This document shows positions 10,414-47,589 of a stretch of 64,000 nucleotides of DNA, piece by piece (position 1 is the first letter of the stretch; each line of letters starts with the position of its first letter). The stretch covers positions 2,496,001 to 2,560,000 of the forward strand of contig CAXXLQ010000004.1 in assembly GCA_963668695.2 (NCBI GenBank), given 5' to 3'. The position numbers were made by a program, and so were the translations under genes. Source of the DNA: Vicinamibacteria bacterium (GTDB taxonomy: Bacteria; Acidobacteriota; Vicinamibacteria; Marinacidobacterales; Marinacidobacteraceae). The notes beneath the pieces were generated by a model that ran no database searches, was not told the origin of the DNA, and saw only the letters and a list, made by a program, of their open reading frames with translations.

Positions 10414-10611
10414 TAGCCTGTGGATAGAGTGGCGTGAGCGCCGAGAGCGGTGAGGCGCCCGGCTGACAAGGCGCGCGAGGGAGGAATACCGGGTGTATTC
10501 GGACCGAGGCGCAACGATGAGCGACGCGAAGCGGCGCGGTTCAGCCGGGATGGATCGCCGCTCGAGCCCCCACCGGGAGAACTGGGCCGCGCCACTCTGT
10601 CCACCGGCTGC
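10413..10611 (+). mobile_element. MITE-like repeat, copy 1
   Basis: Terminal IRs (GTAGCCTGTGGATAGAGTGGCG...CGCCACTCTGTCCACCGGCTGC), TA on both sides, shared core CAAGGCGCGCGAGGGAGGAATACC. Confidence 0.85.
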
Positions 10612-10666
10612 TAGCGCGGCTTCGGCGAGCGAACGCCGCACCGGATCGTCGTCCGCCTGATACCGA

Positions 10667-12757
10667 ATGCCTTCCGGCTCTTCGCGTTACGCCGGACCGG
10701 CCGAGCGCGCGGCTCCCTACGCTCGTCCCGGCCTGCCGCCGGGGAAGTCCGATCGACCCTTCCGGGTGGTGAGCCCTTTCGAGCCGCGCGGAGACCAGCA
10801 AGAAGCCATTGAGCAGCTCGCCGCGGGATTGGAACGGGGCGATCCGAACCAGGTGCTGCTCGGGGTAACGGGCTCGGGCAAGACCTATTCCGTCGCTCGG
10901 GCCATCGAGGCGGTAAACCGCCCGGCGCTGGTCATCGCGCACAACAAAACGCTCGCCGCCCAGCTCTATCAGGAGTTCCGGAGCTTTTTCCCGAACAACG
11001 CCGTCGAGTACTTCGTGAGCTACTACGACTACTACCAGCCCGAGGCCTACGTCCCGGCGAGCGATACGTACATCGAGAAGGAGGCCACGATCAACGACGA
11101 GATCGATCGCCTCCGGCTGTCGGCCACCCGTTCACTCTTCGAGCGCCGGGACGTGCTCATCGTCGCGAGCGTCTCCTGCATCTACGGCCTCGGCTCTCCC
11201 GAGGCCTACTACGGGATGCTCGTCGTGTTCGAGGAGGGAGCCGAGTTCCCGTCCCGGCAGGCGCTTTTGCGCAAGCTCGTCGAGATGCAGTACGAGCGAA
11301 ACGACGCCTCCCTCGAGCGGGGCCGTTTTCGGGTGCGCGGAGACACCGTGGAGATCGTCCCCGGCTACGAAGACCTCGGCCTGCGGGTGCGGCTTTTCGG
11401 CGACGAGGTGGAGCGCCTGGCCCGCTTTGACCCCCTGACCGGTCGCGAGCTCGCGCGCGAGCGCCGGGTCACGCTCTTCCCGCGGAGGCACTACGTGGCC
11501 CGGGAGGAGGACCTCGCCCGGGCGCTGGTCACGATCCGGGAAGAACTCGACGAGCACCATCCGAAGCTTCTCCAGGAGGGGAAGCTGCTCGAAGCGCAGC
11601 GTCTGATGCAGCGCACGCTCTTCGATCTGGACATGCTCGCCGAGTCGGGCCATTGCCACGGCATCGAGAACTACTCGCGTCACTTCACGGGGCGCGCTCC
11701 CGGCGAGCCGCCTCCGACCCTCATGGACTACCTGCCGTCGGACACCATCGTCGTCGCGGACGAAAGCCACCAGACGTATCCGCAGATCCGCGGCATGTTC
11801 GCCGGTGACCAGGCCAGGAAACGCACCCTCGTGGAGCACGGTTTTCGGCTCCCCTCGGCGCTCGACAACCGGCCGCTTTCGTTTGAGGAGTGGGAGGAGC
11901 GGGTCGGACAGGCGATCTCGGTTTCGGCGACCCCGGGGCCGTATGAACTCGAGGCCGTGGGCGGGGTCGTGGTCGAGCAGGTCATCCGCCCCACCGGTTT
12001 GCTCGATCCCGAGGTCGAGGTGCGGCCCGCGGGAGATCAGGTGGACGACCTGCTCGGAGAGATCCGGGAGACGGTGGCCCGCGGTGAGCGCGTGCTCGTC
12101 ACCACCCTGACCAAGCGAATGGCGGAGGACCTGGCCGAGTATTACCACGAGCTCGGGGTGAACTGCCGCTACCTGCACTCGGACATCGACACCCTCGAAA
12201 GGGTGCAGCTCCTCCGCTCCCTCCGCCTCGGCGAGTTCGACGTGCTGATCGGGATCAACCTCTTGCGTGAGGGGCTCGATTTGCCCGAGGTCTCCCTGGT
12301 GGCCATCCTCGATGCCGACCGGGAGGGGTTTCTCCGCTCGGAGGGAGCGCTGATCCAGACCATGGGCCGGGCGGCCCGGCACGCCAGCGGTCGGGCGATC
12401 CTCTACGCCGACCATGAGACCGGCTCCATGAAACGGGCGCTCGGCGAGACCCGGCGCCGCCGCGTGCTCCAGCAGGAGTTCAACGAGGAGCACGGCATCG
12501 TGCCCCGCACGGTGGTCAAGGATGTGGCCGCGGCGTTCGCTCCCGCATCGGCAGGGAAGGCGGCCGTGGAGGAGGCTGACTGGGACCGGGCGATGGGGCT
12601 CTTCGAGGTGCCGCCCGAGGATCCGGAGGCGCTCGAGCGCGAGATCGCCCGGCTCCGCAAGGAAATGAAAAAGGCGGCGCGGGATCTGGAGTTCGAGCGG
12701 GCCGCCCGGCTCCGCGATCACCTGCGCGGAATCCAGCACACCGCGCTGTTGCGCTAG
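10667..12757 (+). CDS. uvrB: Excinuclease ABC subunit B
   Basis: [45 protein letters not shown]-terminal UVR domain. Confidence 0.98.
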
Positions 12758-12879
12758 GGGGCACCACGTGTCGTTTATCCGCGACAAAGTTCGTGTCGTT
12801 TGACAGCGTTTCGCCGTCCCCGGATAGGCTCGGTTAATCGGCGAACATAGCGGTGGGAGTGCCGTGGGAGAATGACGGG

Positions 12880-14241: not shown

Positions 14242-14261
14242 CTTCCGGGTCCGCCGCGGCG

Positions 14262-14422
14262 CCGCCGGCAGCAGGAGGCCCGCCGCCGGCAGCAGGAGCC
14301 GCCGGCAGCAGGAGGCCCGCCCGGCAGCAGGAGGCCCGCCGGCCAGGAGGCCAGGAGGCCCGCCGCCGGCAGCAGGAGGCCCGCCGCCGGCAGCAGGAGG
14401 CCAGCCGGCGGTAGGAGGCCAG
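14262..14422. repeat. Imperfect ~21-bp tandem repeat (CCGCCGCCGGCAGCAGGAGGC)
   Basis: About 8 degenerate units between the aminotransferase stop and the CoA-transferase core. Confidence 0.85.
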
Positions 14423-15562: not shown

Positions 15563-15644
15563 ACCGCCGCCTCCGAGCCGCACCCGGCACGGTAGCGGCC
15601 GTCATACTCAAGTGTCGTACAGGTGTAATTCACCGGTACGGATC

Positions 15645-16652: not shown

Positions 16653-16656
16653 GGTC

Positions 16657-19503
16657 ATGATCGAAGCACGGTGTCGGTGGCTTTCACGGATCTCCGGCGC
16701 GCTTTTCATCCTCGGCCTCGGCGGCGCTCCGGGGTGCGACACCCCCACGACGCCGGCTCCTGAGAGTCCGGCGATCCCCGGCTCCCCGCCGTCGGTTCCA
16801 CCGTCCGGGCCGGCTCCACCTGCCGCGCAGCCCCCGCCCGCCCAGCCCGCGCCGCCCCCGGGGCCGGAACAGCCCCCTCCACCGCCCGAGCGTCCCGTCC
16901 CGCCGTCCTCTGGTGGCGGTGGTGGCGGTGGCGGCGGTGGTGGTGGTGGTGGTGGTGGTGGTGGTGGTGGTGGTGGTGGTGGTGGTGGTGGTGGTGGTGG
17001 TGGTGGCGGTCTGACGACCATGAGCGGACCGCGGCCGACCGGAATCATCGCCGCCAATCCCGACGCGATTTTCCGGGGGGAATGCTCCAACCTGAACTGG
17101 TTCACCGAGGACGCCACCAGCCAGTCCATCAACCAGGGAATCGGGTCGGTCCCGGCTCGCGGACACCGCCTGATCTGCCCCACGAGGACCACGACCTACA
17201 CGCTGAGTGCGTCCGGCCCCGGGGGATCCCTGTCCCTCGCTCCCTCGGTGACGATCACGGTGACGGCACCCCCGCCGACCGGTGACCTGGGGGTAATCAC
17301 CACACCCATCCAGCGCGGGGAATGTACGGATCTCACCTGGTCCACCACCGGAACGGCCAGCCGGAGGATCCAGCCTGACGTCGGGAGCGTCGGGCCGCAG
17401 GGCCGGGAGGCAGTCTGTCCCGGGGTCACGACCACCTACACGCTGACCGCCTCGGGCCCGGGGGGATCCCTGGATCCCGAGCCCGCCGTCACCGTCGTCG
17501 TCATCCAACCCACCCCGACGGGGCAGCTCTCCGCGACCCGCCCGGCGCTGATCTCAGGGGAGTGCACGGAGCTGCTCTGGGTTACCACGGGGACGACCAG
17601 CCAGACCATTGCGCCGGGCATCGGGAGCGTGCCGGTCTCCGGATCCCGCAACGGGGTCTGTCCGACGGCTACCACGACGTACACCCTGACCGCGACCGGT
17701 CCGGGAGGCACGGTGACGCCCGCGCCGGAGGTGACCGTTACCGTGGTTCCGGCGCCGCCGACCGCGAGTCTCAACGCGAATCCGCCGAGCGTCACCTCGG
17801 GAAACTGTTCGACCCTGAACTGGAGCACGACGGACGCTACCGATGTGTCCCTGAACCAGGGGATCGGCAGCGTGTCCACCAGCGGATCCCGGCAAGTCTG
17901 TCCGACAACTTCCACGGCGTACACCCTGACCGTCTCCGGGCCGGGCGGATCGCTCAGCCCGAGCCCCGAGGTCACGGTTACGGTGGCGGCTTCGTCGTCC
18001 GCCCCGACGGGAACGATTGGAGTTGACCCGGTGTTTCTGGACCGCGGCGAATGCTCAGCGCTCAGTTGGAGCACGACGGACGCGACGAGCCAGTCCATCG
18101 ATCAGGGGATCGGCAGCGTCGCCGCCAGCGGTTCGCAGCGGATCTGCCCGACCGAGACGACGACCTACACCCTGACCGCCTCCGGTTCCGGAGGTTCCCT
18201 GAGCCCCGAACCCACGGCCACCGTGACCGTGGAACAGCCCAAACCGGACGGTGACCTGTTCGCCGATCCCGAGCGGATCAGCCGGGGGCAGTGTTCCACC
18301 TTGAGCTGGATTACCCGGGACACGCCCATCCGGTCCATCGATCAGGGGATCGGCAGCGTCGCGGCCAGCGGATCCCGTTCGGTCTGCCCGACGGAGACGA
18401 CAACCTACCGACTCACTGGTTCGGGCCCCGGGGGGAATCTGAACACGATGGTGACGGTCCAGGTCGTCCAGCCGGTGCCGACGGGAACTCTGACCGCCAG
18501 CCCGGAAGAGATCGAGACGGGGAAATGCTCCACGCTGACCTGGCGCACCGCCGAAACCACCACCCGTTCCATCGATCAGGGAGTCGGGGACGTGGCGGCC
18601 TCGGGTTCCGAACAAGTCTGTCCGACCGAGACGACGACCTACACCCTGACCGCCTCCGGACCGGGAGGATCCCTGACGCCGTCGCCCTTCGCCACCATCA
18701 TGGTCAAAGAGCCGCCCGCGTCCGAGGTCCGCTGCGAGATGGTGAGCGTGTCCACGGAGACCCCCATCCGGGCTGGCGAGGGCTATGGCATCTGCCGCGA
18801 CGACTTCTTCGTGGACATCACCATCGAAACGAAGGACGCCGACACCACGGTCCTGGACCTCGGGGAGCCCTACCGCATCTTCGACTGGCAGGTTGAGACG
18901 ATCACCGACGGCCTCCGGCACTCGGTGCGCCTTCACTGGAACCCCCGGGACGAAGAGGGTCTGCTGCCCTCTTCCGGCAGAGCAAGGCCCCTAATCGTCC
19001 AGGCGTGTCCCGAGGGGGACGTGGGAACGTTCGTCGCTTGTGACGACCTCGGATGCACCACGTATAACGACGAAAGCGACATCCCCGACGTGCGGACGCC
19101 GCTCAGCCTGCGGCCTTCCACCAACATCGTGCTCGAGAGTCCCTGGATGGAATCCGAGGTCCAGGACGTCGAGGAGGGGACGCAGCTCGACATTCCGATT
19201 TCCTACGAGATCGACGGAAGCTTCACCGGGAGCATTTTCGTGGAGGCGTCCCTCACCATCGTAGGCAGCTCCGCGAACGCCAGCCGGCGGTTGGTTTCCT
19301 TCAGGAGACTGGTGACCGCGGATGTGACCCCGAACGCCTCCGGAAACCTCGATTTCTGGGTGGTGCCGAATCTGACTTCGGAAGACGAGGGGACGCATAC
19401 GGTGAAGCTCAACTTCCAGGTCGGGTTGTCCACTTCCAGCGCTTCCGACTGCATCGTCCCGCCGAATTCGGTGCAATTCCGGGTCATCGAGGCCCAGCCA
19501 TAG
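16657..19503 (+). CDS. Large surface lipoprotein with Pro-rich stalk, poly-Gly tract and 7 Ig-like repeats
   Basis: Hydrophobic leader ending GAPGC; 33 Gly; seven GxCxxLxW...CPxxTTxYxLTxSGxGG repeats. Confidence 0.85.
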   Translation: MIEARCRWLSRISGALFILGLGGAPGCDTPTTPAPESPAIPGSPPSVPPSGPAPPAAQPPPAQPAPPPGPEQPPPPPERPVPPSSGGGGGGGGGGGGGGGGGGGGGGGGGGGGGGGGGLTTMSGPRPTGIIAANPDAIFRGECSNLNWFTEDATSQSINQGIGSVPARGHRLICPTRTTTYTLSASGPGGSLSLAPSVTITVTAPPPTGDLGVITTPIQRGECTDLTWSTTGTASRRIQPDVGSVGPQGREAVCPGVTTTYTLTASGPGGSLDPEPAVTVVVIQPTPTGQLSATRPALISGECTELLWVTTGTTSQTIAPGIGSVPVSGSRNGVCPTATTTYTLTATGPGGTVTPAPEVTVTVVPAPPTASLNANPPSVTSGNCSTLNWSTTDATDVSLNQGIGSVSTSGSRQVCPTTSTAYTLTVSGPGGSLSPSPEVTVTVAASSSAPTGTIGVDPVFLDRGECSALSWSTTDATSQSIDQGIGSVAASGSQRICPTETTTYTLTASGSGGSLSPEPTATVTVEQPKPDGDLFADPERISRGQCSTLSWITRDTPIRSIDQGIGSVAASGSRSVCPTETTTYRLTGSGPGGNLNTMVTVQVVQPVPTGTLTASPEEIETGKCSTLTWRTAETTTRSIDQGVGDVAASGSEQVCPTETTTYTLTASGPGGSLTPSPFATIMVKEPPASEVRCEMVSVSTETPIRAGEGYGICRDDFFVDITIETKDADTTVLDLGEPYRIFDWQVETITDGLRHSVRLHWNPRDEEGLLPSSGRARPLIVQACPEGDVGTFVACDDLGCTTYNDESDIPDVRTPLSLRPSTNIVLESPWMESEVQDVEEGTQLDIPISYEIDGSFTGSIFVEASLTIVGSSANASRRLVSFRRLVTADVTPNASGNLDFWVVPNLTSEDEGTHTVKLNFQVGLSTSSASDCIVPPNSVQFRVIEAQP
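16912..17010 (+). repeat. (GGT/GGC)33 microsatellite encoding poly-Gly
   Basis: Direct reading of the sequence. Confidence 0.95.
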
Positions 19504-19754: not shown

Positions 19755-19756
19755 CA

Positions 19757-19937
19757 GCAGTCTGTGGACAACGTCGCGGGAGGGCCGAGAGCGGCGAGGC
19801 GCCCGGCTGACAAGGCGCGCGAGGGAGGAATACCGCGTGTATTTCGACCGAAGCGCAACGATGAGCGACGCGAAGCGGCGCGGTCCAGGCGGGATGCATC
19901 GCCGGTCGAACACCCCGCGACGTTGTTCACGGGCTGC
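19757..19937 (+). mobile_element. MITE-like repeat, copy 2
   Basis: GCAGTCTGTGGACAACGTCGCGGG...CCCGCGACGTTGTTCACGGGCTGC plus the shared core. Confidence 0.85.
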
Positions 19938-19982
19938 TAGCATTTGATCGGTTGGGGTGAGGTAGGGAGGCGGAGAGGCGCG

Positions 19983-24270: not shown

Positions 24271-24664
24271 CCCGACTTCCAGGTTGGCATGTTGGCGCGG
24301 ATGCCAGGGAACGCCGGCCAGTTGCCGTGAAACTGCCGTCGCGCCGGGATGCCGACAGTTTGGATGGTGCGGGCCGCAAGGGAACGCTGGGCGGTTGCTG
24401 TGAAAATGCAGTCGCGCCGGGACCCCGACAACCCGGATGGCGCGCAGGCAAGGGAACGCCGGCCAGTCCTCCCGGTGGGGGCCTTCAGACCGGCACCGCG
24501 CGGGAGCGCGAAACCAGCACCGATGAGGTTGCGCCATGGCAAGTTGAGGGCCGGGTCTTTTTCATGACGGGCGAGGGTGTGCAGGTCCACCCGATCATGC
24601 GGGTTTCTCCCGGTGGGGCCCTTCAGACCGGCATCGCGCGGGAGCGCGAAACCAGCACCGATGA
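24271..24664. repeat. Cluster of REP-like hairpins and a ~45-bp duplication
   Basis: GGGAACGCCGGCCAGT occurs twice; CTTCAGACCGGCAYCGCGCGGGAGCGCGAAACCAGCACCGATGA at ~24483 and ~24621. Confidence 0.7.
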
Positions 24665-29959: not shown

Positions 29960-30479
29960 GTCCGGGCCCGGCGGGGAGGGCGCGCCCGACCGCGGCGGCC
30001 CGCTCGCCGGGTTCCACGTCGGCATCGTGGTTTCGGAGCGGGACGAACCCTCGCTTCGCCTGGCCGCGGCCGCCGGGCGCTGGCTCCGGGCCGAGGGGGC
30101 CGATGTCTCCCGCTACCCGGCGCCCGCCGCCTTCGAGGTAGCCCAGTTGGCCGGCTGGCTGGCCGAATCCGGCCGGGTGGACGGGATCGTGGCCTGCGCC
30201 TCGATCGTGCGCGGGGAGACTTCCCACGACCGCCATCTCGCCGAAGCGGTGACCGGCGGGCTCCTCGAAATCGGGATCCGGACCCGGATTCCCGTGGGCA
30301 ACGCGGTCCTTACGGTGGACACGAGCGCGCAGGCCGACGCGCGTTCCGGGGGAGCCAAGGGAAACCGGGGCGAAGACGCGGCACGCGCGGTCGCCGGGCT
30401 GCTGCGCGCCCGGAAGCGTCTTGGAGAGCGCCCCGGCCTCGACCTCGGGCCGGTCTCCGGCTTCCGCGGGGAAGGCTAG
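29949..30479 (+). CDS. ribH: 6,7-dimethyl-8-ribityllumazine synthase (divergent)
   Basis: PAAFEV, VRGETSH, IPVGNAVLT, QADARSGG..GNRGEDAA; lies before nusB. Confidence 0.8.
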   Translation: MAPESGPGGEGAPDRGGPLAGFHVGIVVSERDEPSLRLAAAAGRWLRAEGADVSRYPAPAAFEVAQLAGWLAESGRVDGIVACASIVRGETSHDRHLAEAVTGGLLEIGIRTRIPVGNAVLTVDTSAQADARSGGAKGNRGEDAARAVAGLLRARKRLGERPGLDLGPVSGFRGEG

Positions 30480-30695
30480 CAACCGGTGGACGAAGTCACG
30501 CGGCCCAGTTCTCCCGGTGGGGGCTCGAGCGCCGATTCATCCCGGCTGAACCGCGCGGCTGCGCCTCGCTCGTCGTTGCGCTTCGGTCGAAATACACCCG
30601 GTATTCCTCCCTCGCGCGCCTTGTCAGCCGGGCGCCTCGCCCCCACCGGGAGACTGGTCGCTCTCGGCGCTCGCGCCACTTCGCCCACCGGCTGC
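30479..30695 (-). mobile_element. MITE-like repeat, copy 3, between ribH and nusB
   Basis: GCAACCGGTGG...CCACCGGCTGC ends; reverse-oriented shared core. Confidence 0.85.
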
Positions 30696-30698
30696 TGA

Positions 30699-34715: not shown

Positions 34716-34720
34716 GGGAG

Positions 34721-34743
34721 GCACCGCCGGCCTCCAGGCCGGC
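34721..34743. repeat. REP-like hairpin
   Basis: GCCGGCCT-cc-AGGCCGGC; related copies at ~27830, 36202, 43831, 59952 and 59997. Confidence 0.65.
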
Positions 34744-34850
34744 ATCGCCCGCTGGCAGCCGGGCGAAACCGCGTTTGGCGGACGGGCTACGAAGGGCGCG
34801 CCGGGAGTCCGCCAAGCACCTGGCCCGGAGCTGGATTCCCGGAACTCTTA

Positions 34851-35068
34851 ACAGCCTGTGGTGAAACCCGCGCGGCGTTCGAGCGGCGATCCATCCCGCC
34901 TGAACCGCCCCCCCACCGGGAGAACTGGCGCTTTGCGGCGCTCTGCGTTGCGTTTCGGTCGAAATACACTCGGTATTCCTCCCTCACGCGCCTTGTCAGC
35001 CGGGCGCCTCGCCCCCACCGGGAGAACTGGCCGCTCTCGGCGCTCACCCGGGTTCCACCACAGGCTGT
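34851..35068 (-). mobile_element. MITE-like repeat, copy 4
   Basis: ACAGCCTGTGGTG...CACCACAGGCTGT, TA on both sides. Confidence 0.9.
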
Positions 35069-35111
35069 TAACGGGGACATTTGGTTGAGGCGGGATCAGT
35101 AGCCCCGTATC

Positions 35112-36048
35112 GTGGGTGCCACGATGCGGACGCGCGAGGAGGCGGCTGGTGATCCCGGCATTCTTCTTGGTCGCGTTGCAACTCGGTGGGTCGCCTACGG
35201 CTGTTGGGTTGTTGCTTCATGGGCCGCGGTCACAGGTGTCGGCTGCGGCGGCAGCGGCGGATCACCGACGGTCCCCGGTCCGGTCGTGTCCCCGGCTCCC
35301 GAGCCTCCGCCACCGGATCCGCCCGAGGCTCCGTCTCCCGGCGTCGTGGTGACCCCGGAGCAACTCGTTCTTGCCGAAGGAGAAACCACCACGCTGAGCG
35401 TACGGTTGGCGACGCCACCGACCGCTCCGGTCACCGTTGCCGCAAGTATCCAGGCCGACGCGGGACTCTTCGCCGAATTCGGCAAGGGCACTCCTCTAGA
35501 GATTGTCCAAGGCGGTCGTTTGGTGTTCGACGCGGATACTTGGGACTCGCAACAGACGGTAAAGGTGGTCGCGCAGCACGATTTCGACAGCGTCGATGAG
35601 CAGGCAGCCATCTACCTGGACACAACGAGTAACGACGCCGCTTATGAAAATCTGCCGCGGCTCAGTCTTCCAGCGCACATCACCGACGATGAGTCGGAGA
35701 ACCTTGGCATCTGGGTGTTCGGCCATAAGTTGTATGGCCCCCCCGAGGGGGAAACGAGGTTTTACGGTGTTTCATTGAGCGGTGAGCCGACCGGCGATGT
35801 GGTCGTAACGGTGGCGAGTAGTGATCCGGGAATCCTTGAGGTCACCGAGGGCGGTGAGCTGCTGTTCACGCCAGGTGACTTCGAGATGCTGCAGTGGTTT
35901 TCCCACTTTCAGGGTCAAGGCAGAACGAGACGCTGTCGCGCAACAACCTATCGTTGAGGAATTTGCCGTGCACTTCCTGTCGGGTCGCGGTGGCGGTGAG
36001 TGCGTCGTGGAGCCCAACCGAATCCGGGTGAGGGTCAGCGATCGCTGA
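35112..36048 (+). pseudogene. Lipoprotein with two Ig/Calx-beta-like repeats, frameshifted near 35905
   Basis: VTGVGC lipobox, Pro-rich stalk, EGETTTLSVRLATPPTAPVTV and EGETRFYGVSLSGEPTGDVVV. The second repeat continues in another frame (FRVKAERD...). Confidence 0.65.
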
Positions 36049-36303
36049 AAGGGACGCCGTCCGCCTCGGCCGTCGGCGCTGATTTCAGCGTCTGCTGGGC
36101 GGCGATTCCGGACCCCACCCGGGAGAAATGAGGCGGCCTTCGTCGAACGGCGGCGCCTCGCGGGGGGCGGCCGGTCCGCGTTTCGACCGCCTGCGGCGGG
36201 CGGTGCCGACCTGGAGGTCGGCGATCCCTTTGCCGGTGCGCCGGGAGGGGGATTTCCCCTCCTGCTAAATTGCGGCGTGGCGCGGTTGCCGCGCAGAGGA
36301 TCA

Positions 36304-38784: not shown

Positions 38785-41252
38785 CGAGAACCCGGATGAT
38801 GAGAATCTGGAAAATGGCGGGCGCCTGGGCGGCCGCTTCGGTACTGCTCGGCGGGCTCGCCGGGGCGGGAACGCCGGCCCCGATTCCCACCGCGCCCATC
38901 GCGGTGCAGCAATCGGAGACGGTCGAAGCCGTGCTCATCGAAGGCAACGACCTGATCGCGGCCGACGCCTGGCTCGCCCACCTGACGGTGAAGCTCGGCG
39001 ATCCGGTGGACCGGGAAGCCCTGCGCGCGGAGTTCCAGACGCTTTGGAACACCGGCTTTGCCGACGACATGCGCCTCGAACTCCGGGACGGCCCCGGGGG
39101 CGGCAAGCTGGTGGTGTTCGTGGTGCACGAGCGCCCGCGGGTTGCCACCCTGGAGTTCGTCGGATCCGAAGAGCTCGACAGCGACGACATCCTCGAAAAG
39201 CTCGAGGAGGAGGATTCCCAAATCGCGGTCGGGGCCCCTTACGACCCCGACAAGGTGGTGCGCGCCCGGGAGGCCATCGAGGAGATGCTGGTGGACAAGG
39301 GCCGCACCGAAGGGGCGGTGACGAGCACCATCACCGAAACCGACGCCGGGGTCCAGATCGTCTTCAACATCAACGACGAGCAGCAGATCCGGATCCGCCG
39401 GATCCAATTCGAGGGCATCGAGGCGCTCGACGAATGGCCGCTGCGCTGGTCGATGAAAAAAACGCGGGAAAGTCACCCGCTCGGTGCACTGCTCGGAGGT
39501 TCGACCTACACCGAGGAGCAGTACGCCGAGGACATTGAGGCGGTGCGGCAGGAGTACCTGAAGCGCGGCTACCTCGACGTTTCCTTCGGTCCCCCCGAGT
39601 TCGAATACGAGGACGGCTTCTCCCGCCAGTTCCTGTTCTGGAAGCGTGCCAAGCGCTGGATGGACGTCACCATCCCCGTGGTCGAAGGCGAGCAGTACCG
39701 GGTCGGCGAAGTCACCGTCGAGGGGGCCGATGTGTTTCCCGCCGAGTTCGTCCGCGCGTTCTTCCCGATCCTGGCCGGCGAGGTGTATGACGAGTCCAAG
39801 GTGAACAAGGGACTCGATTCGCTCCGCGAGGTGTACGGCGCCCGCGGTTACGTGCAGTTCACCGGCTTCCCCACCTGGCATCGCCGCCCCGAAGAGCGGA
39901 TCGTGGACGTGGTCATCAACCTGGCCGAGGAGGACCAGTTCCTGGTCAACCGGATCGAGTTCCGGGGGAATTCGACGACGAAGGACCGGGTGATCCGCCG
40001 CGAGATGTGGCTCAACGAGCAGGACATCATGAACATGGAGCTGCTGAAGGCCTCCATCCAGCGCATCAACCAGCTCGGCTACTTCCGGCCCATCGAGCAG
40101 CCGGAAATCGAGCCCAGCCCCGAGGACGAGACCAAGCTCGACATCACGCTCGACGTGGTCGAGGAAAACCGCAACCAGCTCACTTTTGGCGCCGGGGTGT
40201 CCGGGCTCGAGGGCCTGTTCGTGAACGCATCCTTCGGAACCACGAACTTCCTGGGCCGGGGCGAGACCGCGAACTTCTCGATCCAAACCGGAAGCCGCAC
40301 CCAGAACTACCAGATCGCCATCACCGATCCGTACTTCATGGACAAGCCCATCACGCTCGGCTTCGACGTGTTCAGCCGGGTCCTGAAGCTGCGGGAGTTC
40401 ACCCGCGGGGACCTCGGGGGGCGGATCGTCTTCGGCGTGCCCCTCGGGCGCTGGTCGCGGGCGTTTTTGAACTACGGCTACTCCGTGATCACCGTCAGCG
40501 AGCCGGACCCCGACATCGTCCTCAACCTCTACGACCTCTACTACAACAGCACCTATCTCGATCCGCGGTTCTACGGGCTGTCCGGGAACTTCCGCGAGAG
40601 CAAGATCAGCCCGACGTTAGTCCACAACACCGTGGACCACCCCATCTTTCCGAGCCGGGGAAAGAAGGCGACCGCTTCCTTCGACATCGCCGGCGGGGCC
40701 CTCGGCGGCAACGTCCACTACTTGAAGCCGACCCTGGAACTCGTGCACCACATGCGGGTGATCGGCAACACCTCGCTCGGCTTGCGCGCCATGGGGAGCT
40801 ACCTCCACGGCTACGGGGGCATCCCGCCCCCGGAGGGCCAGGAGATCGACATCTTCAACGTCGAGCAGACCGGAGTGCCGTACTACAACCGCTTCTTCCT
40901 GGGAGGCGAGTACCAGATCCGCGGCTACTACATCCGCTCCGTGGGGCCGAGGAACGCGCGGGGCCAGCTCCTCGGCGGAGACAAGATGTTGCTCTTCAAC
41001 GCCGAGTACGCGATCCCGCTGGCCGGCCCGCTGCGAGCCATTCTGTTCTTCGATGCGGGGAACGCGTTCGCCGAGGAACAGAACTGGAGCCTCTCGATGC
41101 TCCAGGATTTCCGGACCTCCACGGGCATCGAGATGCGCGTGTTCATCCCCATGCTGAACGTGCCCTTCCGGCTCATCTTCGCCTACAATCCCCATCGGGA
41201 TTATTACCATCGGCCCACGGCCTTCGTGTTCGGGATCGGAACGACCTTCTAG
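38781..41252 (+). CDS. bamA: Outer membrane protein assembly factor
   Basis: POTRA repeats (GNSTTKDRVIRRE), NFLGRG, IRGY loop, C-terminal Phe. Confidence 0.95.
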   Translation: MTRTRMMRIWKMAGAWAAASVLLGGLAGAGTPAPIPTAPIAVQQSETVEAVLIEGNDLIAADAWLAHLTVKLGDPVDREALRAEFQTLWNTGFADDMRLELRDGPGGGKLVVFVVHERPRVATLEFVGSEELDSDDILEKLEEEDSQIAVGAPYDPDKVVRAREAIEEMLVDKGRTEGAVTSTITETDAGVQIVFNINDEQQIRIRRIQFEGIEALDEWPLRWSMKKTRESHPLGALLGGSTYTEEQYAEDIEAVRQEYLKRGYLDVSFGPPEFEYEDGFSRQFLFWKRAKRWMDVTIPVVEGEQYRVGEVTVEGADVFPAEFVRAFFPILAGEVYDESKVNKGLDSLREVYGARGYVQFTGFPTWHRRPEERIVDVVINLAEEDQFLVNRIEFRGNSTTKDRVIRREMWLNEQDIMNMELLKASIQRINQLGYFRPIEQPEIEPSPEDETKLDITLDVVEENRNQLTFGAGVSGLEGLFVNASFGTTNFLGRGETANFSIQTGSRTQNYQIAITDPYFMDKPITLGFDVFSRVLKLREFTRGDLGGRIVFGVPLGRWSRAFLNYGYSVITVSEPDPDIVLNLYDLYYNSTYLDPRFYGLSGNFRESKISPTLVHNTVDHPIFPSRGKKATASFDIAGGALGGNVHYLKPTLELVHHMRVIGNTSLGLRAMGSYLHGYGGIPPPEGQEIDIFNVEQTGVPYYNRFFLGGEYQIRGYYIRSVGPRNARGQLLGGDKMLLFNAEYAIPLAGPLRAILFFDAGNAFAEEQNWSLSMLQDFRTSTGIEMRVFIPMLNVPFRLIFAYNPHRDYYHRPTAFVFGIGTTF

Positions 41253-41315
41253 CGGTCGCGGGAGACAGCCCGCGTTCCGGCACCGAGCAGAGTTTTCAGG
41301 GAGTTGACCAACGTC

Positions 41316-41876
41316 ATGAATCGTTTTGCCCGTTGCCTCCGGGGCGGCTTTTCGGGGGTGGCGCTCACGGGGTTGTTGCTGGCCGCGCCTTCCGCTTTCG
41401 CGCTGCAAGACGCCGAGCCCACTCGGGTGGCGGTGATCGACATCGACCGTATCGCCCAGGAGTCCGCCAGAGGACAGGCGATGTTCACCGAACTGCAGTC
41501 CCTGCAGGAAGAGATCCTTCGCGGCCGGCAGTCGCGGGAACAGGAAATCCGCGATCTGACGAACCGGGCGCAGTCGCAACTGCTCTCCGCGGAGGCCCGC
41601 GCCGATCTGACCCGCGACATCGAGCGGCGGAACACGGACCTGCAGCGCTGGCTCGAGGACCAGCAGCGCGCGTTCAACGACAAGCAGACCACCGGATTCG
41701 CCTCCCTCGAACAGGCTCTCGGACCGGTGGTGGAAGAGGTGGCCCGCGAGCAGAACATCCAGTTGATTCTCCGGGTGACTCCCGGCCTCACCTTCATCAT
41801 GGATCCCGCGCTCGATATTTCGAGTGAGGTGATCACGCGCTTCAACGCGCTGAGCGACGGCGGGGAAGAGCCGTAG
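41316..41876 (+). CDS. skp: OmpH/Skp periplasmic chaperone
   Basis: Signal peptide, VAVIDIDRI, coiled coil, LDISSEVI; follows bamA. Confidence 0.88.
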   Translation: MNRFARCLRGGFSGVALTGLLLAAPSAFALQDAEPTRVAVIDIDRIAQESARGQAMFTELQSLQEEILRGRQSREQEIRDLTNRAQSQLLSAEARADLTRDIERRNTDLQRWLEDQQRAFNDKQTTGFASLEQALGPVVEEVAREQNIQLILRVTPGLTFIMDPALDISSEVITRFNALSDGGEEP

Positions 41877-41918
41877 AGCCGTAGGGCGACGCCCACGCCC
41901 GCTGCCGGCGGGGCCGGG

Positions 41919-42485
41919 ATGACACGCTTCGAAGGGCCCCGGCCTCTCCTTGATGAAATCGGGGATGAGATCGGGGAAGATGCGGGTGAGGCGCCTTCCC
42001 GCCTCACCGCGCGCCGGCACGTCCCCGAAGACGAGCCGTTTTTCGCCGGGCACTTTCCGGCGATGCCGGTGGTCCCGGGGGTCTTCATGTTGGAAGCGCT
42101 CGCCGAATGCGCCCGCCGGTCGCTTCCGCCCGGCGCGACGCTTGCATCTGCACCCCTCGTGCGATTCCGCCGCCGCGTTTCTCCCGGGGAAACCCTCGAA
42201 CTCAGCGTAACCCCGACCGGCGGCGAGGGTGACCGGCGCCGGTTCGATGCCGTGGCTTCGGTGGAGGGTCGGGCCGCCGTCCAGGCGACCCTGGAGTTTC
42301 GGGCGGGGACCGGGACTTCGGCCGGGACTTCGGCCGGGACTTCGGCCGGGACTTCGGCCGGGACTTCGGCCGGGACTTCGGCCGGGACTTCGGCCGGGAC
42401 TTCGGCCGGGACTTCGGCCGGGACTTCGGCCGGGACTTCGGCCGGGACTTCGGCCGGGACTTCGGCCGGGACTGCGGAACGATGA
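41919..42485 (+). CDS. fabZ: FabZ-like hot-dog dehydratase (degenerate N-terminus) with (AGTS)n tail
   Basis: [36 protein letters not shown]; lacks the usual LPHRYPF. Confidence 0.7.
42311..42473. repeat. 12-bp tandem repeat GCCGGGACTTCG (12 full copies plus partials)
   Basis: Perfect copies at 42321-42464. Confidence 0.95.
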
Positions 42486-43789
42486 GCTCCGACTTTCAGG
42501 GGCTCGGACTTCTCGATCCGGAAGAACGCCGCGAAGCTTCGCCGCCCCCGGCAGGGAAGGGCGCCCGGCGTCCGTCCGGTGCGCCGCCCTTCCGCCGCCG
42601 CTCGCGCCAGGGGCCGCCGGGGACCGGCGGGCGCGGGTCGGGCTCGCGCCGTTCCGATGCCCGCCCGCTGCTCACCGGCCTGAGCCTTGGCGGGACGCTC
42701 GACGATCTGAGTGGCGTCTCCGTTCGCCGGCGCGCCGCCGTCACCGGGACCTCGGCCGGGTTCCACCTGTTGTTGTTGCTGCTGTTTTTGGGTGGACTCG
42801 TTCCCACCGCCCCTTCGGAGCCGGCCGCCGCGCCGACCGAGGATCCGCTCCTTTACGCCTTCGAGGCGCCGCCGCTCGAGGAGACGCAGCCGCTCGATGC
42901 CGTCATCGAGCCTCCGCCCCCCGCTCTTCTTCCCGAGGAGACGGCTCCGGAGGCTGCCGAAGCGCAGCCGCCGCCGCCAGCCGCCGGCATCGTGATCCCG
43001 GAGGCGCAGATCGCCGCCCCCAACACCGGTTTCCAGAACGATCTGCCCTTTTCCGAGGGCGAGGACGAGGAGTTCTACGTCGATCACGAGATGGGAGAAG
43101 AACTGGCCGCCGAGGATGACCGCAGCGAGGCGACGGACGGCGCGGAGCCGGAATTCGTATCCGAGATTCCGGCTATCGAGGATTCGGCCGAGGCGCTGGC
43201 CGAGCCGGCGCTCCAATCTCCCGGGTTCGGGCTGTCGGAGGGGCCGCTCCAGTTCGACGCCGAGGCATTCCGTCGTCTGATCAACGACCCGGCTGCCGAG
43301 GTGCGGCGGCTCGGTAACGAACTGGCGATGCGGGAGGCGCGCGCCCGGGCCGAGGAGGAACGCCGCAAGCAGGGGGCGCCCACCGACATCTGGCGGTTTC
43401 TCGAGGGCAAGCGCTTCCGGAACCCGGAAGGCGGGCTGGTCTCGAACCGCAACAACACCCTCTACTACGACGACCGGGGCGCCAACCTGGTGCCGTGGAT
43501 CGGCCGCCTCATCGCCGAGGTCCGCCGGAACTGGTACATCCCCTACGCCGCCTCCTACGATCGCGGCCACGTGGCGATTGCGATCAGCGTGCAGCGGAGC
43601 GGGCAGCTCGCCTGGTTGCAGGTAGTGGTCCCGTCGGGGGTGCCCGGCTTCGATAACGCCGCGGTCGGGGCGCTCCGCGGCGCCGAGTTGTTGCCGCTTC
43701 CGGATGACTACCCCGGGGCCGACTTCGAGATCATGCTGGTCTTTTGGTACAACGAACAGCCCTTCGATCTCTTCTCGACGCAGGATTGA
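42482..43789 (+). CDS. TonB/TolA C-terminal domain protein
   Basis: TM with SAGFH, Pro/Glu-rich stalk, VRRNWYIP...[15 protein letters not shown]...PLPDDYP. Confidence 0.82.
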
Positions 43790-43963
43790 GGCGGTGGGAT
43801 TGCCCCTCGTCCGGATGGCGCCGCCGGGAAGGGAACGCCGGCCAGTTTTCCCGGTGGGGCGTTCACGCCCCCACCGGGAGAACTGGCCAGCACCGCCCCG
43901 CGCGGCGAGGCGAGGTCGCGCAATGCTCCTCCGCAATGAGGACGCGCCGCCGGGGGCAACCAC

Positions 43964-46153
43964 ATGAGTAACACTGGCTCCCCCCGGCGCGGCGCCCGGG
44001 CGGCCTTGCTCACCGCCCTGTGCTTCGCGATCTCCCCTTCCGGCACTGCCGCCCAGCCCATCCCGGCCCCGCAGATCCGGATCGGTCTCGCCGACGGGGT
44101 CTCCGCGGCCCGGATCTCCGCGCCCGCTCCCTTCGTGCTGCGCGCCGGGGAACTCGTGATCGAGACCGCCGACGCGCTCATTTCGGCCGAGACGGGGGCA
44201 GGGGAAGCCGTCCTGGCACTGGGTTCCTTTGCCGGCGAGGCCGGGGCCCGGGAGGCGGCCGAAGCCTTTCGCGAGGAACGAAGCGACGGTCCCGAGGTGC
44301 GGGTGGAGCGCGACCCGGACACCGGGCGCTATCTCGCGGTCCTCCCGGCGGGCCCGGCTGCCGAAGCGGAGGTGGCCGGCCTCCGGGACGCCGGGTTCCC
44401 GGGCGCCGGCATCTTCCGCATTCCGGCCCCGGTCGGGGAGGCGCTCGTGGTCCGGCCGTTCGGCGGTGCACCGATCCGATTCTCCGCCGGCGTTTCGTTG
44501 ACCGCCGAGCCGCCCGGGGACGCGTTCCTCGAGTGGGAGGGGCGGCCCTACCGCGGTTCGTTCACGGTGTTCCGCAGCGGGGGGGGCGTGACCGTCGTCA
44601 ATGAGACGACGCTCGAGGAATACCTGTTCGGCGTCGTGCCGCGCGAGTTGCCGCCCGATCTCTTCCCGGAGATCGAGGCCCTGAAGGCGCAGGCCCTCGC
44701 GGCCCGCACCTATGCCCTCACGCCGAGGGACGCCTACATCCGGCGCGGCTACGACCTCTGCGGCAGTCCCGCCTGTCAGGTCTATGGGGGCGTGGCAGCG
44801 GAACGTCCGCTCTCCACGGCCGCGGTCCGGGAAACCGCGGGCGAGGCGCTCTTCCACGACGGCCGCCTGATTGACGCCCTCTACACGGCGGCTTGCGGGG
44901 GATACACCGAAAACGCCGAGAACGTGTTCTCCAACCCGACTCCGTATCTGGTGGCCCGGGCCTGCATCCGGGAGGCCGGCGGGGTCGGGCTGCGGGGGGC
45001 ATCCGCGGACGCCCCGCTCGACGCCGCGCTCGTCCGGATCGCCGGGGCGCTGCCGGCGGGCTGGAACGGGGCGGGCCTTTCCGCGCCCGCATCCCGCGGG
45101 GAGGCCGCGCGCATCCTGACGGGGGTCGTCCGCTGGCTGGGACTCCCGGCGTGCGACCCGGGGGGGAGAGCCGGGGGCGAACTGACTCTGAGCGAGTTCG
45201 GCCGGTTGGCGGAGGCCACCCGCTGCCGGGAGCCGGAGGGCTCGCTCCTGGGTCCGGGCCCGGACGGCGGTGAGTTGTCTCGGGAGGGAGGCCCGGCGAT
45301 CGGGCGCCTGCTCGCCGAGGGGCTTTTCGATCCCAGCGAGCGGGGACTCGATCCGGGACGGCCGGTGAGCCGCCGGGAAGTGGTCGGAGTCGGGGCCTCC
45401 CTGATGCGGCGCGATGGTCAGCTCCTGCGGCGCGGACAGATCCGGGAAGTCTCCGCGCGAGACGGCGGGGTTCACATCACCCTCGAAGCGGACAACGACG
45501 AGCCCGCAACCGGCGAGAAGGTCCTGGAGGCGCTCGAACCTGCCGGGGAGGCGCTCCTCTTCCGCGAAGTCCGGCCCACCCGCATCCCCGGCCGTGAAGA
45601 GCCGCCGGCGCTCGCGCTTCCCACCGGCGAAGTCCTTCTCCGGGTGGGGGACTTCATCCGCTACCACGCTGCGACCCGGCCGGCAGCGGGCGAAGAACCG
45701 CTCCGGTTCGAGCTGCTGGTTCTGGAAGACCTGGGCGACGCCCACGACCGCTTCTCGCGGCAGAGTTCGTGGCTGGTGCCGAAGAACAACGCCGATCTCT
45801 CGGACGTGGTGAACGAAGTGGAGCCCATCGGCCGGATCGTCGCCCTCGAACCGCTGGAGTTGGGGGTCTCCGGGCGGGTAGTCCGGCTTCGCATCACCGG
45901 CACTCAGGGGAGCTTCGAAGTGCGCGGCCTCCGCATCCGGCGTCTCCTGGGCCTCTCGGAGAATCTGTTCCGGGCCGAGGCCCGGCGCGACGAGAACGGC
46001 GACGTGACGGAATGGTGGTTCTTCGGCAGAGGCTGGGGGCACGGCCTCGGGCTCTGCCAGGCCGGGGCCTACGGGATGGCCGCTTCGGGCGCCGGCTACC
46101 GCGACATCCTGGCCCATTACTACCTGGGCACGGAGATTCGGTCCGTCCCGTGA
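43964..46153 (+). CDS. SpoIID/LytB domain peptidoglycan hydrolase (with SPOR-like segment)
   Basis: YRG, LEEYLFGVVPRE, EALKAQALAARTYA, CQVYGG, GWGHGLGLCQAGA, ILAHYY. Confidence 0.92.
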   Translation: MSNTGSPRRGARAALLTALCFAISPSGTAAQPIPAPQIRIGLADGVSAARISAPAPFVLRAGELVIETADALISAETGAGEAVLALGSFAGEAGAREAAEAFREERSDGPEVRVERDPDTGRYLAVLPAGPAAEAEVAGLRDAGFPGAGIFRIPAPVGEALVVRPFGGAPIRFSAGVSLTAEPPGDAFLEWEGRPYRGSFTVFRSGGGVTVVNETTLEEYLFGVVPRELPPDLFPEIEALKAQALAARTYALTPRDAYIRRGYDLCGSPACQVYGGVAAERPLSTAAVRETAGEALFHDGRLIDALYTAACGGYTENAENVFSNPTPYLVARACIREAGGVGLRGASADAPLDAALVRIAGALPAGWNGAGLSAPASRGEAARILTGVVRWLGLPACDPGGRAGGELTLSEFGRLAEATRCREPEGSLLGPGPDGGELSREGGPAIGRLLAEGLFDPSERGLDPGRPVSRREVVGVGASLMRRDGQLLRRGQIREVSARDGGVHITLEADNDEPATGEKVLEALEPAGEALLFREVRPTRIPGREEPPALALPTGEVLLRVGDFIRYHAATRPAAGEEPLRFELLVLEDLGDAHDRFSRQSSWLVPKNNADLSDVVNEVEPIGRIVALEPLELGVSGRVVRLRITGTQGSFEVRGLRIRRLLGLSENLFRAEARRDENGDVTEWWFFGRGWGHGLGLCQAGAYGMAASGAGYRDILAHYYLGTEIRSVP

Positions 46154-46263
46154 GCTGGCGATCGGCGTTCCGCTTCACACCGGGACAGCAGCGCGCCGGA
46201 GCGCTGCTGGTCCTCGTGCTGCTGGTGATCGCTCTGATCCGCCGCTCAGCAGCCTGTGGATAA
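46150..46263 (+). CDS. Small single-TM peptide ending inside the repeat
   Basis: GTGA overlap with spoIID stop; FRFTPGQQRAGALLVLVLLVIALIRR. Confidence 0.45.
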   Translation: MSWRSAFRFTPGQQRAGALLVLVLLVIALIRRSAACG

Positions 46264-46483
46264 AGTGGCGTGAGCGCCGAGAGCGGTGAGGCGCCCGGCT
46301 GACAAGGCGCGCGAGGGAGGAATACCCGGTGTATTTCGACCGAGGCGCCCGAAGCGCCCGAAGCGCAACGATGAGCGACGCGAAGCGCCGGTTCTCCCGG
46401 TGGGGGGGCGGTTCAGCCGGGATGCATCGCCGCTCGAGCCCCCACCGGGAGAACTGGGCCGCGAGACTTTGTTCACAGGCTGC
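46249..46483 (+). mobile_element. MITE-like repeat, copy 5
   Basis: GCAGCCTGTGGATAAAGT...ACTTTGTTCACAGGCTGC, flanked by TCA on both sides. Confidence 0.88.
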
Positions 46484-47452
46484 TCAGATAGCTCGTCACC
46501 GAACGCGCCGCTCGTCCTGGCGCTCGTGGGACCGACCGCCAGCGGGAAGTCGGAACTCGCGGTAGCGGTGGCCGAGGCGCTCCCGTTTCCCGTCGAGATC
46601 GTCTCCTGCGACGCCTTCCAGACCTACCGGGAACTGGATATCGGCTCCGGGAAACCCTCGCCGGAGCTGCGCGCGCGCCTGCCGCACCACCTCCTCGACG
46701 CGCTCGACCCCGATGATCCGTGCACCGCCGGACGCCACGCGGACCTGGCGGCGTCGACGATCCGGAACATCCGGGGCCGCGGGGCGGTCCCGCTGGTCGT
46801 GGGCGGGAGCGGCCTCTACTTCCGGGCGCTGCGCGACGGGATCTTCGAGGGGCCCGTGCCGGACCCCCGGCTGCGGGCGCGGCTCGATGCCCTCTACCGG
46901 CGGCCGGGAGGCCCCCGCTGGCTGGAGCGGTTTCTTTCGCGGCTCGACCCCGAGGCCCACCGGCGCATTCATCCCAACGACCGCGTCCGTCGGGTCCGGG
47001 CCCTCGAAGTAGCGATCGCCGCGGGAGAACCGATCTCCCGGCTGCAGGCGACCCGCCGCCCTCCGCTTCCGGACGCGGATTGGCGGATCGCCGGCCTCGA
47101 CCCGCCCCGCGGCGTCCTCGAAGAGCGGATCGTCCAGCGGGTTCAGGGAATGTTCGCCGACGGGCTGCTGGACGAGGTCCGCCGCCTTCGCGACCGGTAC
47201 CCGGGTGAGTGGCCGGGGCGGCTTGCGATCGGGTACCGCGAGGTGCTTGCCTTCCTTGCCGAGGGCGGGGGACCGGACGATTCCGAGGCGCGGCTCGCCC
47301 AGGTCCAGGACCGGGTGGTGGTCTCCACCCGGCGCTACGCGAAGCGGCAGCTCACGTGGTTCCGCGCCGAACGAGGCGTAACCTGGGTTCCCGTTGCGGC
47401 GGACGGCTCCGCCGCGCGCGACGCGGTCTTGCGCGTCTTCCTTCCCGGTTGA
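46469..47452 (+). CDS. miaA: tRNA dimethylallyltransferase
   Basis: GPTASGKS, SCDAFQTYRELDIGSGKP, GGSGLY, RRVRALE, TRRYAKRQLTW. The nearest in-frame start is a TTG inside the repeat. Confidence 0.93.
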   Translation: MFTGCSDSSSPNAPLVLALVGPTASGKSELAVAVAEALPFPVEIVSCDAFQTYRELDIGSGKPSPELRARLPHHLLDALDPDDPCTAGRHADLAASTIRNIRGRGAVPLVVGGSGLYFRALRDGIFEGPVPDPRLRARLDALYRRPGGPRWLERFLSRLDPEAHRRIHPNDRVRRVRALEVAIAAGEPISRLQATRRPPLPDADWRIAGLDPPRGVLEERIVQRVQGMFADGLLDEVRRLRDRYPGEWPGRLAIGYREVLAFLAEGGGPDDSEARLAQVQDRVVVSTRRYAKRQLTWFRAERGVTWVPVAADGSAARDAVLRVFLPG

Positions 47453-47510
47453 CTTCCTCGTTTTGGGCGCGCGGGATGGCACCGACACGCCCCCCGGAAG
47501 ACGTCACCCG

Positions 47511-47589
47511 GGAGCCGGTGGACAAAGTCAGGCGCCCCGGTTCTCCCGGTGGGGGCTTCGGCGTTCACGCCACCTTTTCCACGGGCTCC
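47511..47589. mobile_element. Short, internally deleted relative of the MITE family
   Basis: GGAGCCGGTGGACAAAG...CTTTTCCACGGGCTCC ends enclosing a 16-bp module. Confidence 0.6.

Follow-up and report, generated by a model that had tools for sequence, protein, structure and literature searches.

The DNA analysed here (the window, 64,000 nucleotides (nt) of contig CAXXLQ010000004.1, Vicinamibacteria bacterium assembly GCA_963668695.2) carries a short sequence module at a dozen places, each time inside or beside another repeat. The hosts are of two unrelated kinds, a MITE (miniature inverted-repeat transposable element) and repetitive extragenic palindrome (REP) hairpins. An earlier note, made from the sequence of the window alone, had listed twelve copies and had suggested that the module might be a minimal mobile unit, the fixed scar of a larger element, or a templated insertion spread by gene conversion. 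All twelve copies exist (Table 1): ten match the 16-mer CCCACCGGGAGAACTG with no more than two mismatches, where 0.16 matches are expected and none of 100 shuffled sequences reaches ten, the copy near 24602 is truncated, and that at 30642 has a 1-nt deletion. As presented below, most copies may owe their distribution to conversion between host repeats and to multiplication of the MITE, and the module has in addition entered single-copy DNA at least twice. The assembly under study is referred to as G000, and G001, G004, G007, G008, G010, G012, G014, G018 and G020 are comparison genomes.

A conserved block and its hosts

In the whole assembly the 16-mer is present 1325 times exactly, 1596 times with at most one mismatch and 1659 times with at most two, equally on both strands, and the reversed pattern, used as a control, gives 0-1 matches per genome. 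The assembly contains strain-level duplicate stretches that are 97.6-99.7% identical (C1 versus C4:304-421 kb, C3 versus C4:3505-3538 kb, and the head of C4 at 13-148 kb versus its tail at 3783-3914 kb). Genome-wide counts are about 10% too high unless these are masked. Within the 3.48 Mb that are not duplicated the fair count is 1439, or roughly one copy every 2.4 kb. Conservation does not end with the 16-mer. The three bases before it read G (-3, 88% of copies), C (-2, 86%) and C (-1, 99%), and the base directly after it is G in 97%; the conserved block is 20 nt long, GC+CCCCACCGGGAGAACTGG, with an 18-nt core. This core is also a tandem period, since 151 adjacent pairs lie at a spacing of 18 nt in runs of up to four units. 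Adjacent inverted pairs are frequent as well (305 in -/+ and 117 in +/- order) because of the way in which the host repeats are built. Direct reading shows that the halves of the block are not reverse complements of one another and that its only self-complementary part is the flanking GGCC. The module thus lacks terminal inverted repeats, as the earlier note had said, and is no palindrome, unlike the imperfectly palindromic REP-type units of 20-40 nt. A fixed stretch of about 18-20 nt is among the smallest insertion-like DNA units seen in bacteria.

Repeats lie on both flanks of 1291 of the 1659 copies. The main host is a 185-nt, TA-flanked MITE that folds into a long hairpin (z = -6.0). In G000 it offers five module sites. 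Sites 1 and C belong to the left arm and carry the module in '-' orientation, site A is close to the apex, and the right half holds sites 2 and 3; at A and 3 the orientation is '+'. Of the 1439 copies, at least 1018 have a MITE context, and 167 occupy REP-type hairpins that fall into at least four sequence types. When sites 1 and 3 are both filled, the predicted fold of the MITE has both modules paired, so that two modules in opposite arms pair with each other and lengthen the hairpin. The REP at window 43843/43870 was rightly described as carrying the module symmetrically in both arms, and there the two copies form the stem. Many other copies in MITE hairpins are unpaired, which leaves the hairpin bulged rather than extended.

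That the module behaves as a cassette is seen when 12-mers taken 4 nt off each side of every copy are located throughout the genome. Such flank pairs recur 1675 times at the filled spacing of 24 nt, 1623 times at 6 nt (empty, 18 nt less), 422 times at 5 nt (19 nt less) and 155 times at 42 nt (double), and for 1070 of 1658 copies a counterpart with exactly the same flanks and 18 or 19 nt less exists elsewhere. When 680 MITE loci were aligned with the empty backbone, 624 insertions at least 8 nt long appeared, 301 of which contain the whole module. Among the other 323 the listed classes are module pieces split by the aligner, and the only other recurrent class is a tandem copy of the 53/71-nt right end. 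The module is therefore the only recurrent internal insertion of the 185-nt MITE at these loci.

Several derived or related repeats were seen in passing. At many loci, for instance G000:C4:2573833-2574700, tandem arrays are formed by the last 53 nt at the right end of the MITE, or by 71 nt where a module is included, and these arrays account for the peak at 71 nt in the spacing of direct module pairs. Mini-MITEs about 80 nt long, made up of the left end, a module and the right end, are present at window positions ~47505-47590 and at G000:C4:668190-668270; they look like deletion derivatives formed between complementary CGAG stretches of the two arms. A further repeat family of about 167 nt with one module is represented at G000:C4:2603279-2603445, a locus that is empty of the repeat in G008, G010 and G014; in G001 the repeat is found elsewhere. 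The copy at C4:2603392, considered as a solitary module, was rejected as such since it sits inside this repeat.

Table 1. Copies of the module and of its MITE host in the window
Feature	Position	Strand
Module copy, site 3 of MITE 10412-10614	10569..10584	+
Module copy, 1 mismatch, left arm of REP hairpin (GGGAACGCCGGC / CTTCAGACCGGC)	24464..24479	-
Truncated, degenerate module adjoining second REP copy	24602..24618	-
Module copy, site 3 of MITE 30479-30695 (MITE on - strand)	30506..30521	-
Module copy with 1-nt deletion, site 1 of MITE 30479-30695; pairs with 30506-30521 in predicted hairpin	30642..30656	+
Module copy, site 2 of MITE 34849-35069	34912..34927	+
Module copy, site 1 of MITE 34849-35069	35014..35029	+
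Module copy, 1 mismatch, left arm of REP hairpin around loop TTCA	43843..43858	-
Module copy, right arm of the REP holding the 43843 copy	43870..43885	+
Module copy, 1 mismatch, site 2 of MITE 46248-46486	46389..46404	-
Module copy, site 3 of MITE 46248-46486	46441..46456	+
Module copy, 1 mismatch, whole interior of mini-MITE	47538..47553	-
MITE, 185-nt backbone plus one module (site 3)	10412..10614	+
MITE, every site empty	19756..19940	+
MITE, sites 1 and 3 filled	30479..30695	-
MITE, sites 1 and 2 filled	34849..35069	-
MITE, sites 2 and 3 filled, plus unrelated 18-nt tandem duplication	46248..46486	+
MITE, every site empty; served as the 185-nt backbone	50769..50953	-

Junctions, mosaic occupancy and turnover

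At MITE sites 3, C and 2, two host bases are swapped for the 20-nt block: site 3 changes from AACGCC to A+GCCCCC...CTGG+GCC, site C from GGCGCC to G+(A/G)CCCCC...CTGG+GCC, and site 2 from CGCCGC to C+CCCCCC...CTGG+CGC. At site A three bases are swapped for 21 nt (AATACC to A+GCCCCC...CTGGC+CC), and the net gain at all four sites is 18 nt. MITE site 1 and one REP arm gain 19 nt with a GCC overlap, and the further forms encountered are a net gain of 19 nt in REPs, a 4-for-23 exchange in one REP arm and one 22-nt case. The junction thus varies between sites, with 0-1, 2, 3 or 4 host bases replaced, and stays the same within any one site, in tens to hundreds of copies. The 2-for-20 form (net +18) recurs at six independent places, namely MITE sites 3, C and 2, two MITE sites of other genera, and a gene of the AcrB family that is described below.

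These junctions bear on the 3-bp direct repeat that the earlier note had seen around the module. At MITE site 1 and in the one REP arm, removal of the module plus one triplet does restore the host; elsewhere two or three host bases are replaced and no such restoration occurs. Identical triplets flank 781 of the 1439 copies, compared with 2.0% of random 16-mers. This excess arises because the triplets belong to the conserved block itself; they are missing from the empty alleles at four of six compared sites and do not represent a target duplication. With neither terminal inverted repeats nor a general target-site duplication of fixed length, the module was rejected as an element of the insertion sequence or MITE type. 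At MITE site 1 the bases adjoining the junction are diverse in empty alleles and uniform in filled ones, which suggests that empty is the older state there.

The occupancies of the six window MITEs are as the earlier note had given them, as was its observation that sites 1 and 3 occur in all four combinations. To see this pattern in the whole family, 302 near-full MITE copies from non-duplicated sequence may be considered, of which 76 are empty at all five sites. For sites 1 and 3 the numbers are 127 empty/empty, 21 empty/filled, 49 filled/empty and 28 filled/filled, and all four combinations are found for each of the ten site pairs. Occupancy is positively correlated in eight of the ten (odds ratio 2.2-6.3), clearly so in six (p <= 0.002), with odds ratios of 0.7 and 1.0 in the other two. 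The replaced junction bases track occupancy (r2 0.92-0.97), and its association with backbone variants outside the junction is weak, with r2 at most 0.22, and at most 0.15 beyond 5 nt; the exception is one variant 5 nt from site C, for which r2 is 0.57. Pairs of backbone variants behave in much the same manner, with a mean r2 that falls from 0.23 (1-5 nt apart) to 0.09 (6-15 nt) and then to about 0.05 at larger distances. The MITE family as a whole is accordingly a short-tract mosaic, and the loss of linkage is not special to the module. Set against these nearly unlinked neighbours, complementary positions in the two arms covary with r2 of 0.42-0.77 (3/183, 14-21/166-167, 16/171-172 and 111-115/127). 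The hairpin, or a match between the ends, is thus being maintained, and this compensatory covariation indicates that structure matters in the MITE family.

Comparison of filled and empty alleles in sister genomes reveals that occupancy differs at orthologous copies. For the MITE at window 10412, orthologous copies exist in three species, and the others lack it at that locus. It is filled at site 3 in G000, at sites 1 and 3 in G001 (97% identical there) and at sites 1, A, 2 and 3 in G004 (91%). G001 and G004 have in common a site-1 module with the same 1-nt deletion, so that G000 has lost this module; its site 1 now reads as the commonest empty allele, one base off the product of a precise deletion. 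On a larger scale, megablast alignments with G001 broke at repeats and covered 19 modules, and an anchor-based realignment was used instead. Over 290 kb of synteny at about 94-95% identity, 49 module copies lie in large indels and 11 are shared. Most module-bearing elements are therefore in large indels, which shows that whole MITE and REP copies turn over fast.

Shorter time-scales are accessible in the co-assembled duplicates, of which about 265 kb were aligned at 96% identity or more and which represent strains about 99.5% identical. Indels of at least 4 nt number approximately 31, and eight of them involve the module: three switches between empty and single at site C, two switches at site A, two between single and double, and one partial deletion. 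Module cassettes are thus among the commonest strain indels and matter for strain typing and for assembly. Five of the eight have none or one other difference within about 75-100 nt, and two are accompanied by clusters of differences, three within 70 nt in one case and eight across one MITE in the other. Every clean switch between empty and filled recreates the canonical allele pair of its site. When outgroups were consulted for three of these loci, the MITE proved to be absent from G001, G004 and G008 at two. At the third, all sites are empty in G004, site C is double in G001 and more sites are filled in G000, which suggests that G000 gained modules there. The contigs of four public runs were aligned to window positions 30000-49999; they stop at repeats or collapse in them, and module indels make up none of the 12 listed.

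Single-copy DNA and the spread across genera

The block also lies in frame within a gene for an AcrB-family transporter (Pfam ACR_tran, E 1.1e-62), where it adds six codons in a region encoding a cytoplasmic loop of the pump. The gene is filled in G000 (in both strain copies) and in G001, and is exactly 18 nt shorter in G004, G008, G010 and G014. Empty and filled sequences read GAGCCCG-CG-CGGGAT and GAGCCCG-GCCCCCACCGGGAGAACTGG-CGGGAT, respectively, the 2-for-20 exchange already met in the MITE, and the net gain of 18 nt allows reading frames to survive. A second entry, at the end of another gene, is filled in G000, G001, G004 and G008 and absent from G010 and G014, among six genomes compared. 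Since single-copy DNA has no homologous filled donor, such entries go beyond what conversion explains. Conversion is therefore not the whole story, with at least two such entries. When copies were strictly screened for unique flanks, four were retrieved, each of them in a REP or a mini-MITE, and the AcrB insertion was not among them.

All 15 genomes of the genus contain the 16-mer, as do four other genera of the family, which makes 22 of the 24 genomes of the family that were searched; in two other families of the order it has at most one match, a number comparable to the 0-1 matches of the reversed-pattern control. It is letter-perfect across at least five genera, while the REP hosts differ. 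In other genera the block is found at two further sites of the same MITE superfamily, following the same junction rule, and other REP types serve as hosts. One MITE copy of G018 holds six modules, and G020 has a single exact copy, at MITE site A. The load per MITE-core marker ranges from about 0.2 (G010, G007 and G012) to 2.5-4 or more. As a separate observation, at G018:C1:61980-62480 and 417280-417560 the module is part of 44-nt tandem units on a different REP hairpin (GCCGGACTCCAGTCCGGC), and is also found beside partial copies of itself.

Explanations weighed and known repeats compared

The explanation that we favour, with a probability of roughly 0.5, is that gene conversion and MITE amplification account for the copy number and the mosaic, with seeding by a template switch onto an existing copy. 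Each position would have been seeded once or rarely by illegitimate insertion, typically of the 20-nt block for two host bases. The likeliest route would be a short template switch onto one of the many module copies already present. MITE copies carrying a module would then multiply and so raise the number of modules, and short-tract ectopic conversion between dispersed MITE and REP copies would flip a site in place between its two canonical alleles. Single seeding followed by such spread is suggested by the pervasive mosaic together with junctions that are specific to each site, constant within it, and linked to neighbouring differences in some switches. It is the mosaic of the family as a whole that makes conversion and amplification the best explanation for the bulk of the copies. 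Of the possibilities raised by the earlier note, spread by conversion is the one that gains support, for this bulk of copies: changes in place recreate the same two alleles, sometimes with neighbouring differences, and occupancy is unlinked beyond 5 nt.

Five observations weigh against this explanation. Random template switching should give more varied ends, and since the 2-for-20 junction is uniform at its six independent places, a defined mechanism is indicated. The exact preservation of the 16-mer across five or more genera is not obviously explained by neutral conversion. The load per MITE marker varies more than 10-fold between complete genomes of one genus, which would need a drive. Several strain switches are clean, with no co-converted difference, as a site-specific enzyme would predict equally well. 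Finally, no donor copy was identified for any switch event.

It is also possible, with a probability clearly lower than that of conversion, that the module is a mobile ultra-small element resembling the small dispersed repeats (SDRs) of cyanobacteria. A putative enzyme encoded by the host or by an element would insert, and perhaps remove, the block at loose GC-rich targets, and conversion would be a side effect. In its strongest form, which we hold just as tentatively, this would be autonomous ultra-small mobile DNA outside the cyanobacteria, with a putative dedicated activity that pastes 20 nt in place of two bases, in hairpins as well as genes, and that acts on the time-scale of strains. De novo entry into single-copy DNA, in one case in frame within a gene and in the other at a gene end, speaks for such an element, as do the recurrent junction, the tandem runs with an 18-nt period, the standing of the module as sole recurrent insertion in the MITE, its exact conservation between genera and its fast switching between nearly identical strains. 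Yet no candidate enzyme was found: the Y1 transposase model PF01797, which detects the REP-associated tyrosine transposase (RAYT), has no match in G000 (91.7% complete), with matches in 6 of 14 control genomes, and G000 has a single IS110 gene and IS630 copies whose ends are unrelated to the block. Nor is there a replication-strand bias in G000, where, with the origin near 1.10 Mb and the terminus near 3.08 Mb by GC skew, 769 copies are on the leading and 726 on the lagging strand. Among the 1,439 copies of the non-duplicated 3.48 Mb, only two entries into unique DNA are convincing, no full screen having been made. The junctions are not uniform either, given the +19 form of site 1 and REPs, the exchanges of 3 for 21 and 4 for 23 and the 22-nt case, and some switches carry linked differences, as conversion predicts. 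The notion of a minimal mobile unit thus gains partial support, from the entries into single-copy DNA, although the 3-bp target duplication is not general and no enzyme was found.

We think it unlikely that the block is kept for a function, for example to bind a protein or RNA or to build stems and so stabilise hairpins in repeats that are transcribed behind genes, and that it spread by selection or biased repair, although such a role would be compatible with either conversion or mobility. The 16-mer remains exact in all genomes of the genus and in four other genera while the host repeats diverge; inverted pairs that extend stems are common, as at window 43843/43870, and the MITE arms show compensatory covariation. 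Against this, many copies are unpaired and bulge the hairpin, and correlations of occupancy are not specific to complementary sites. The window has no Rfam match at gathering thresholds, and unless some copying process is assumed, it is implausible that selection acts on some 1,400 copies separately.

There is very little to recommend the proposal that the module is the footprint or end fragment of a larger excised element carrying a RAYT, IS110, IS630 or reverse transcriptase. The one IS110 gene does lie about 400 nt from two module-bearing REPs; IS110 was nevertheless rejected as a parent because this single copy does not end in the block. IS630 was rejected because its ends read GTGTGGTGTCC, unrelated to the block. 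No larger element ending in the module was found, copies with one repeated and one unique flank being ordinary MITE ends or REPs. The missing RAYT gene, the lack of inverted-repeat halves in the block and the contrast at site 1 between diverse empty and uniform filled alleles, which suggests that empty came first, are also at odds with a footprint, and this suggestion of the earlier note is not sustained. One IS630-family element (locus L158, G000:C4:667050-668195), whose ends read GTGTGGTGTCC.../...GGACACCACAC, has as its insertion point a TA that lies between two MITE copies; since its ends differ from those of the MITE, it is not an obvious parent of the MITE either.

An assembly artefact or chance is hardly credible, for although the assembly contains collapsed or duplicated strain stretches and short-read contigs break at repeats, independent assemblies share locus-specific variants, including the 1-nt-deleted module, and display the same differences in occupancy at orthologous loci, and neither the shuffles nor the reversed pattern approach the observed counts. 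Other candidate origins were also tried and rejected. An origin of the module from a tRNA or an att core is not supported, its best local score against 58 tRNA and transfer-messenger RNA genes being 12, which 4% of shuffled modules equal. As an over-represented oriented oligomer, such as an uptake sequence or one resembling Chi or the FtsK-orienting polar sequences (KOPS), it is excluded by the repeats that flank most copies on both sides and by the balance between the replication strands. Exact mirror-image sites in the MITE hairpin were rejected because the sites are near-mirror only, and a loss of restriction sites on filling, judged by eye, showed no consistent pattern.

How repeats far smaller than transposons spread has been a question since the description of REP motifs and of cyanobacterial SDRs. 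Judged by general features of build, the nearest known kind appears to be the SDRs, of which SDR1-8 of the Nostocaceae, 21-27 nt long, were reportedly described by Elhai et al. in 2008; to our knowledge no enzyme is known for them, and none was found for the module. Both are non-coding units of about 20 nt, far below the size of MITEs, nested in larger repeats, sometimes in tandem, as in the 18-nt-spaced pairs and runs of up to four units seen here, and present or absent between close relatives. The module differs in belonging to another phylum (Acidobacteriota), in measuring 18-20 nt instead of 21-27, in being a single, non-palindromic sequence family, and in its documented in-frame entry into a gene and its turnover between strains. 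The SDRs of the Nostocaceae are also summarised in PMC5861425. A limited search of the literature found no description of these repeats for sponge-associated Acidobacteria.

The bacterial interspersed mosaic elements (BIMEs) of enterobacteria are said to be mosaics in which REPs, or palindromic units, are combined with additional short motifs (Gilson et al. 1991), and REPs are said to have been proposed to evolve by gene conversion (Higgins et al. 1988). The module likewise is a short conserved, non-palindromic motif that adjoins REP arms in variable combinations, 167 of 1439 copies lying in the arms of at least four hairpin types, and conversion is invoked in both cases to homogenise copies. 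It differs from BIME motifs in being an indel allele within the REP stem or loop and in occupying seven sites of an unrelated MITE, the context of most copies, and a gene as well; in addition, there is no RAYT gene in G000 and no protein partner is known for the module. On the BIMEs of enterobacteria see also PMC2817692 and PMC3333891.

Three further comparisons are more distant. As a family of hairpin repeats in which copies are told apart by insertions at a few set places inside, the MITE resembles the enterobacterial repetitive intergenic consensus or intergenic repeat unit (ERIC/IRU), MITE-like elements reported, we believe, by Wilson and Sharp in 2006 to carry internal insertions of about 70 nt at fixed sites; those insertions are not known from other hosts, whereas here one 18-20-nt block serves all sites and hosts. 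Rickettsia palindromic elements (RPEs), reportedly described by Ogata et al. in 2000, are likewise repeat DNA lying in frame in protein genes and tolerated in loops, as are the six codons of the AcrB-family pump; RPEs, however, are 100-150 nt long and palindromic, with genes as their usual home, and for the module an insertion in a gene is the exception. Template-switch mutation at quasi-palindromes, usually credited to Ripley (1982) and the Lovett laboratory, would copy an insertion into the other arm in inverted form and replace a few mismatched bases, in keeping with the '-' copies of left arms and the '+' copies of right arms. The paired module sites are only near-mirror, and entry into REPs and a gene would be left unexplained by this process.

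This family of genomes provides a very clean system for addressing such questions, combining one letter-perfect block, filled and empty alleles that number in the hundreds and whose positions are known, a genus whose complete genomes differ about 80-fold in load, co-occurring strains with flipped sites, and at least two dated entries into single-copy DNA, one of them in frame in a transporter gene.

Other repeats of the window were noted in passing. At positions 57660-59800 more than 30 units with a period of 64 nt, each made of two half-units of about 32 nt (GAACATGTCGCAGTAGCGGGATCGG...), are arrayed in tandem, and a perfect 12-nt tandem repeat, CCGGGACTTCGG, is iterated about 14 times at 42310-42480. 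A long run of GGT/GGC triplets at 16915-17010 is followed by six repeats of about 240 nt at 17081-18727, and the two together are probably a repetitive protein-coding region. At 29348-29445 ARAGORN reports a tRNA-Val(gac) of 98 nt, unusually long, which may be a pseudo-call or an intron-bearing gene.

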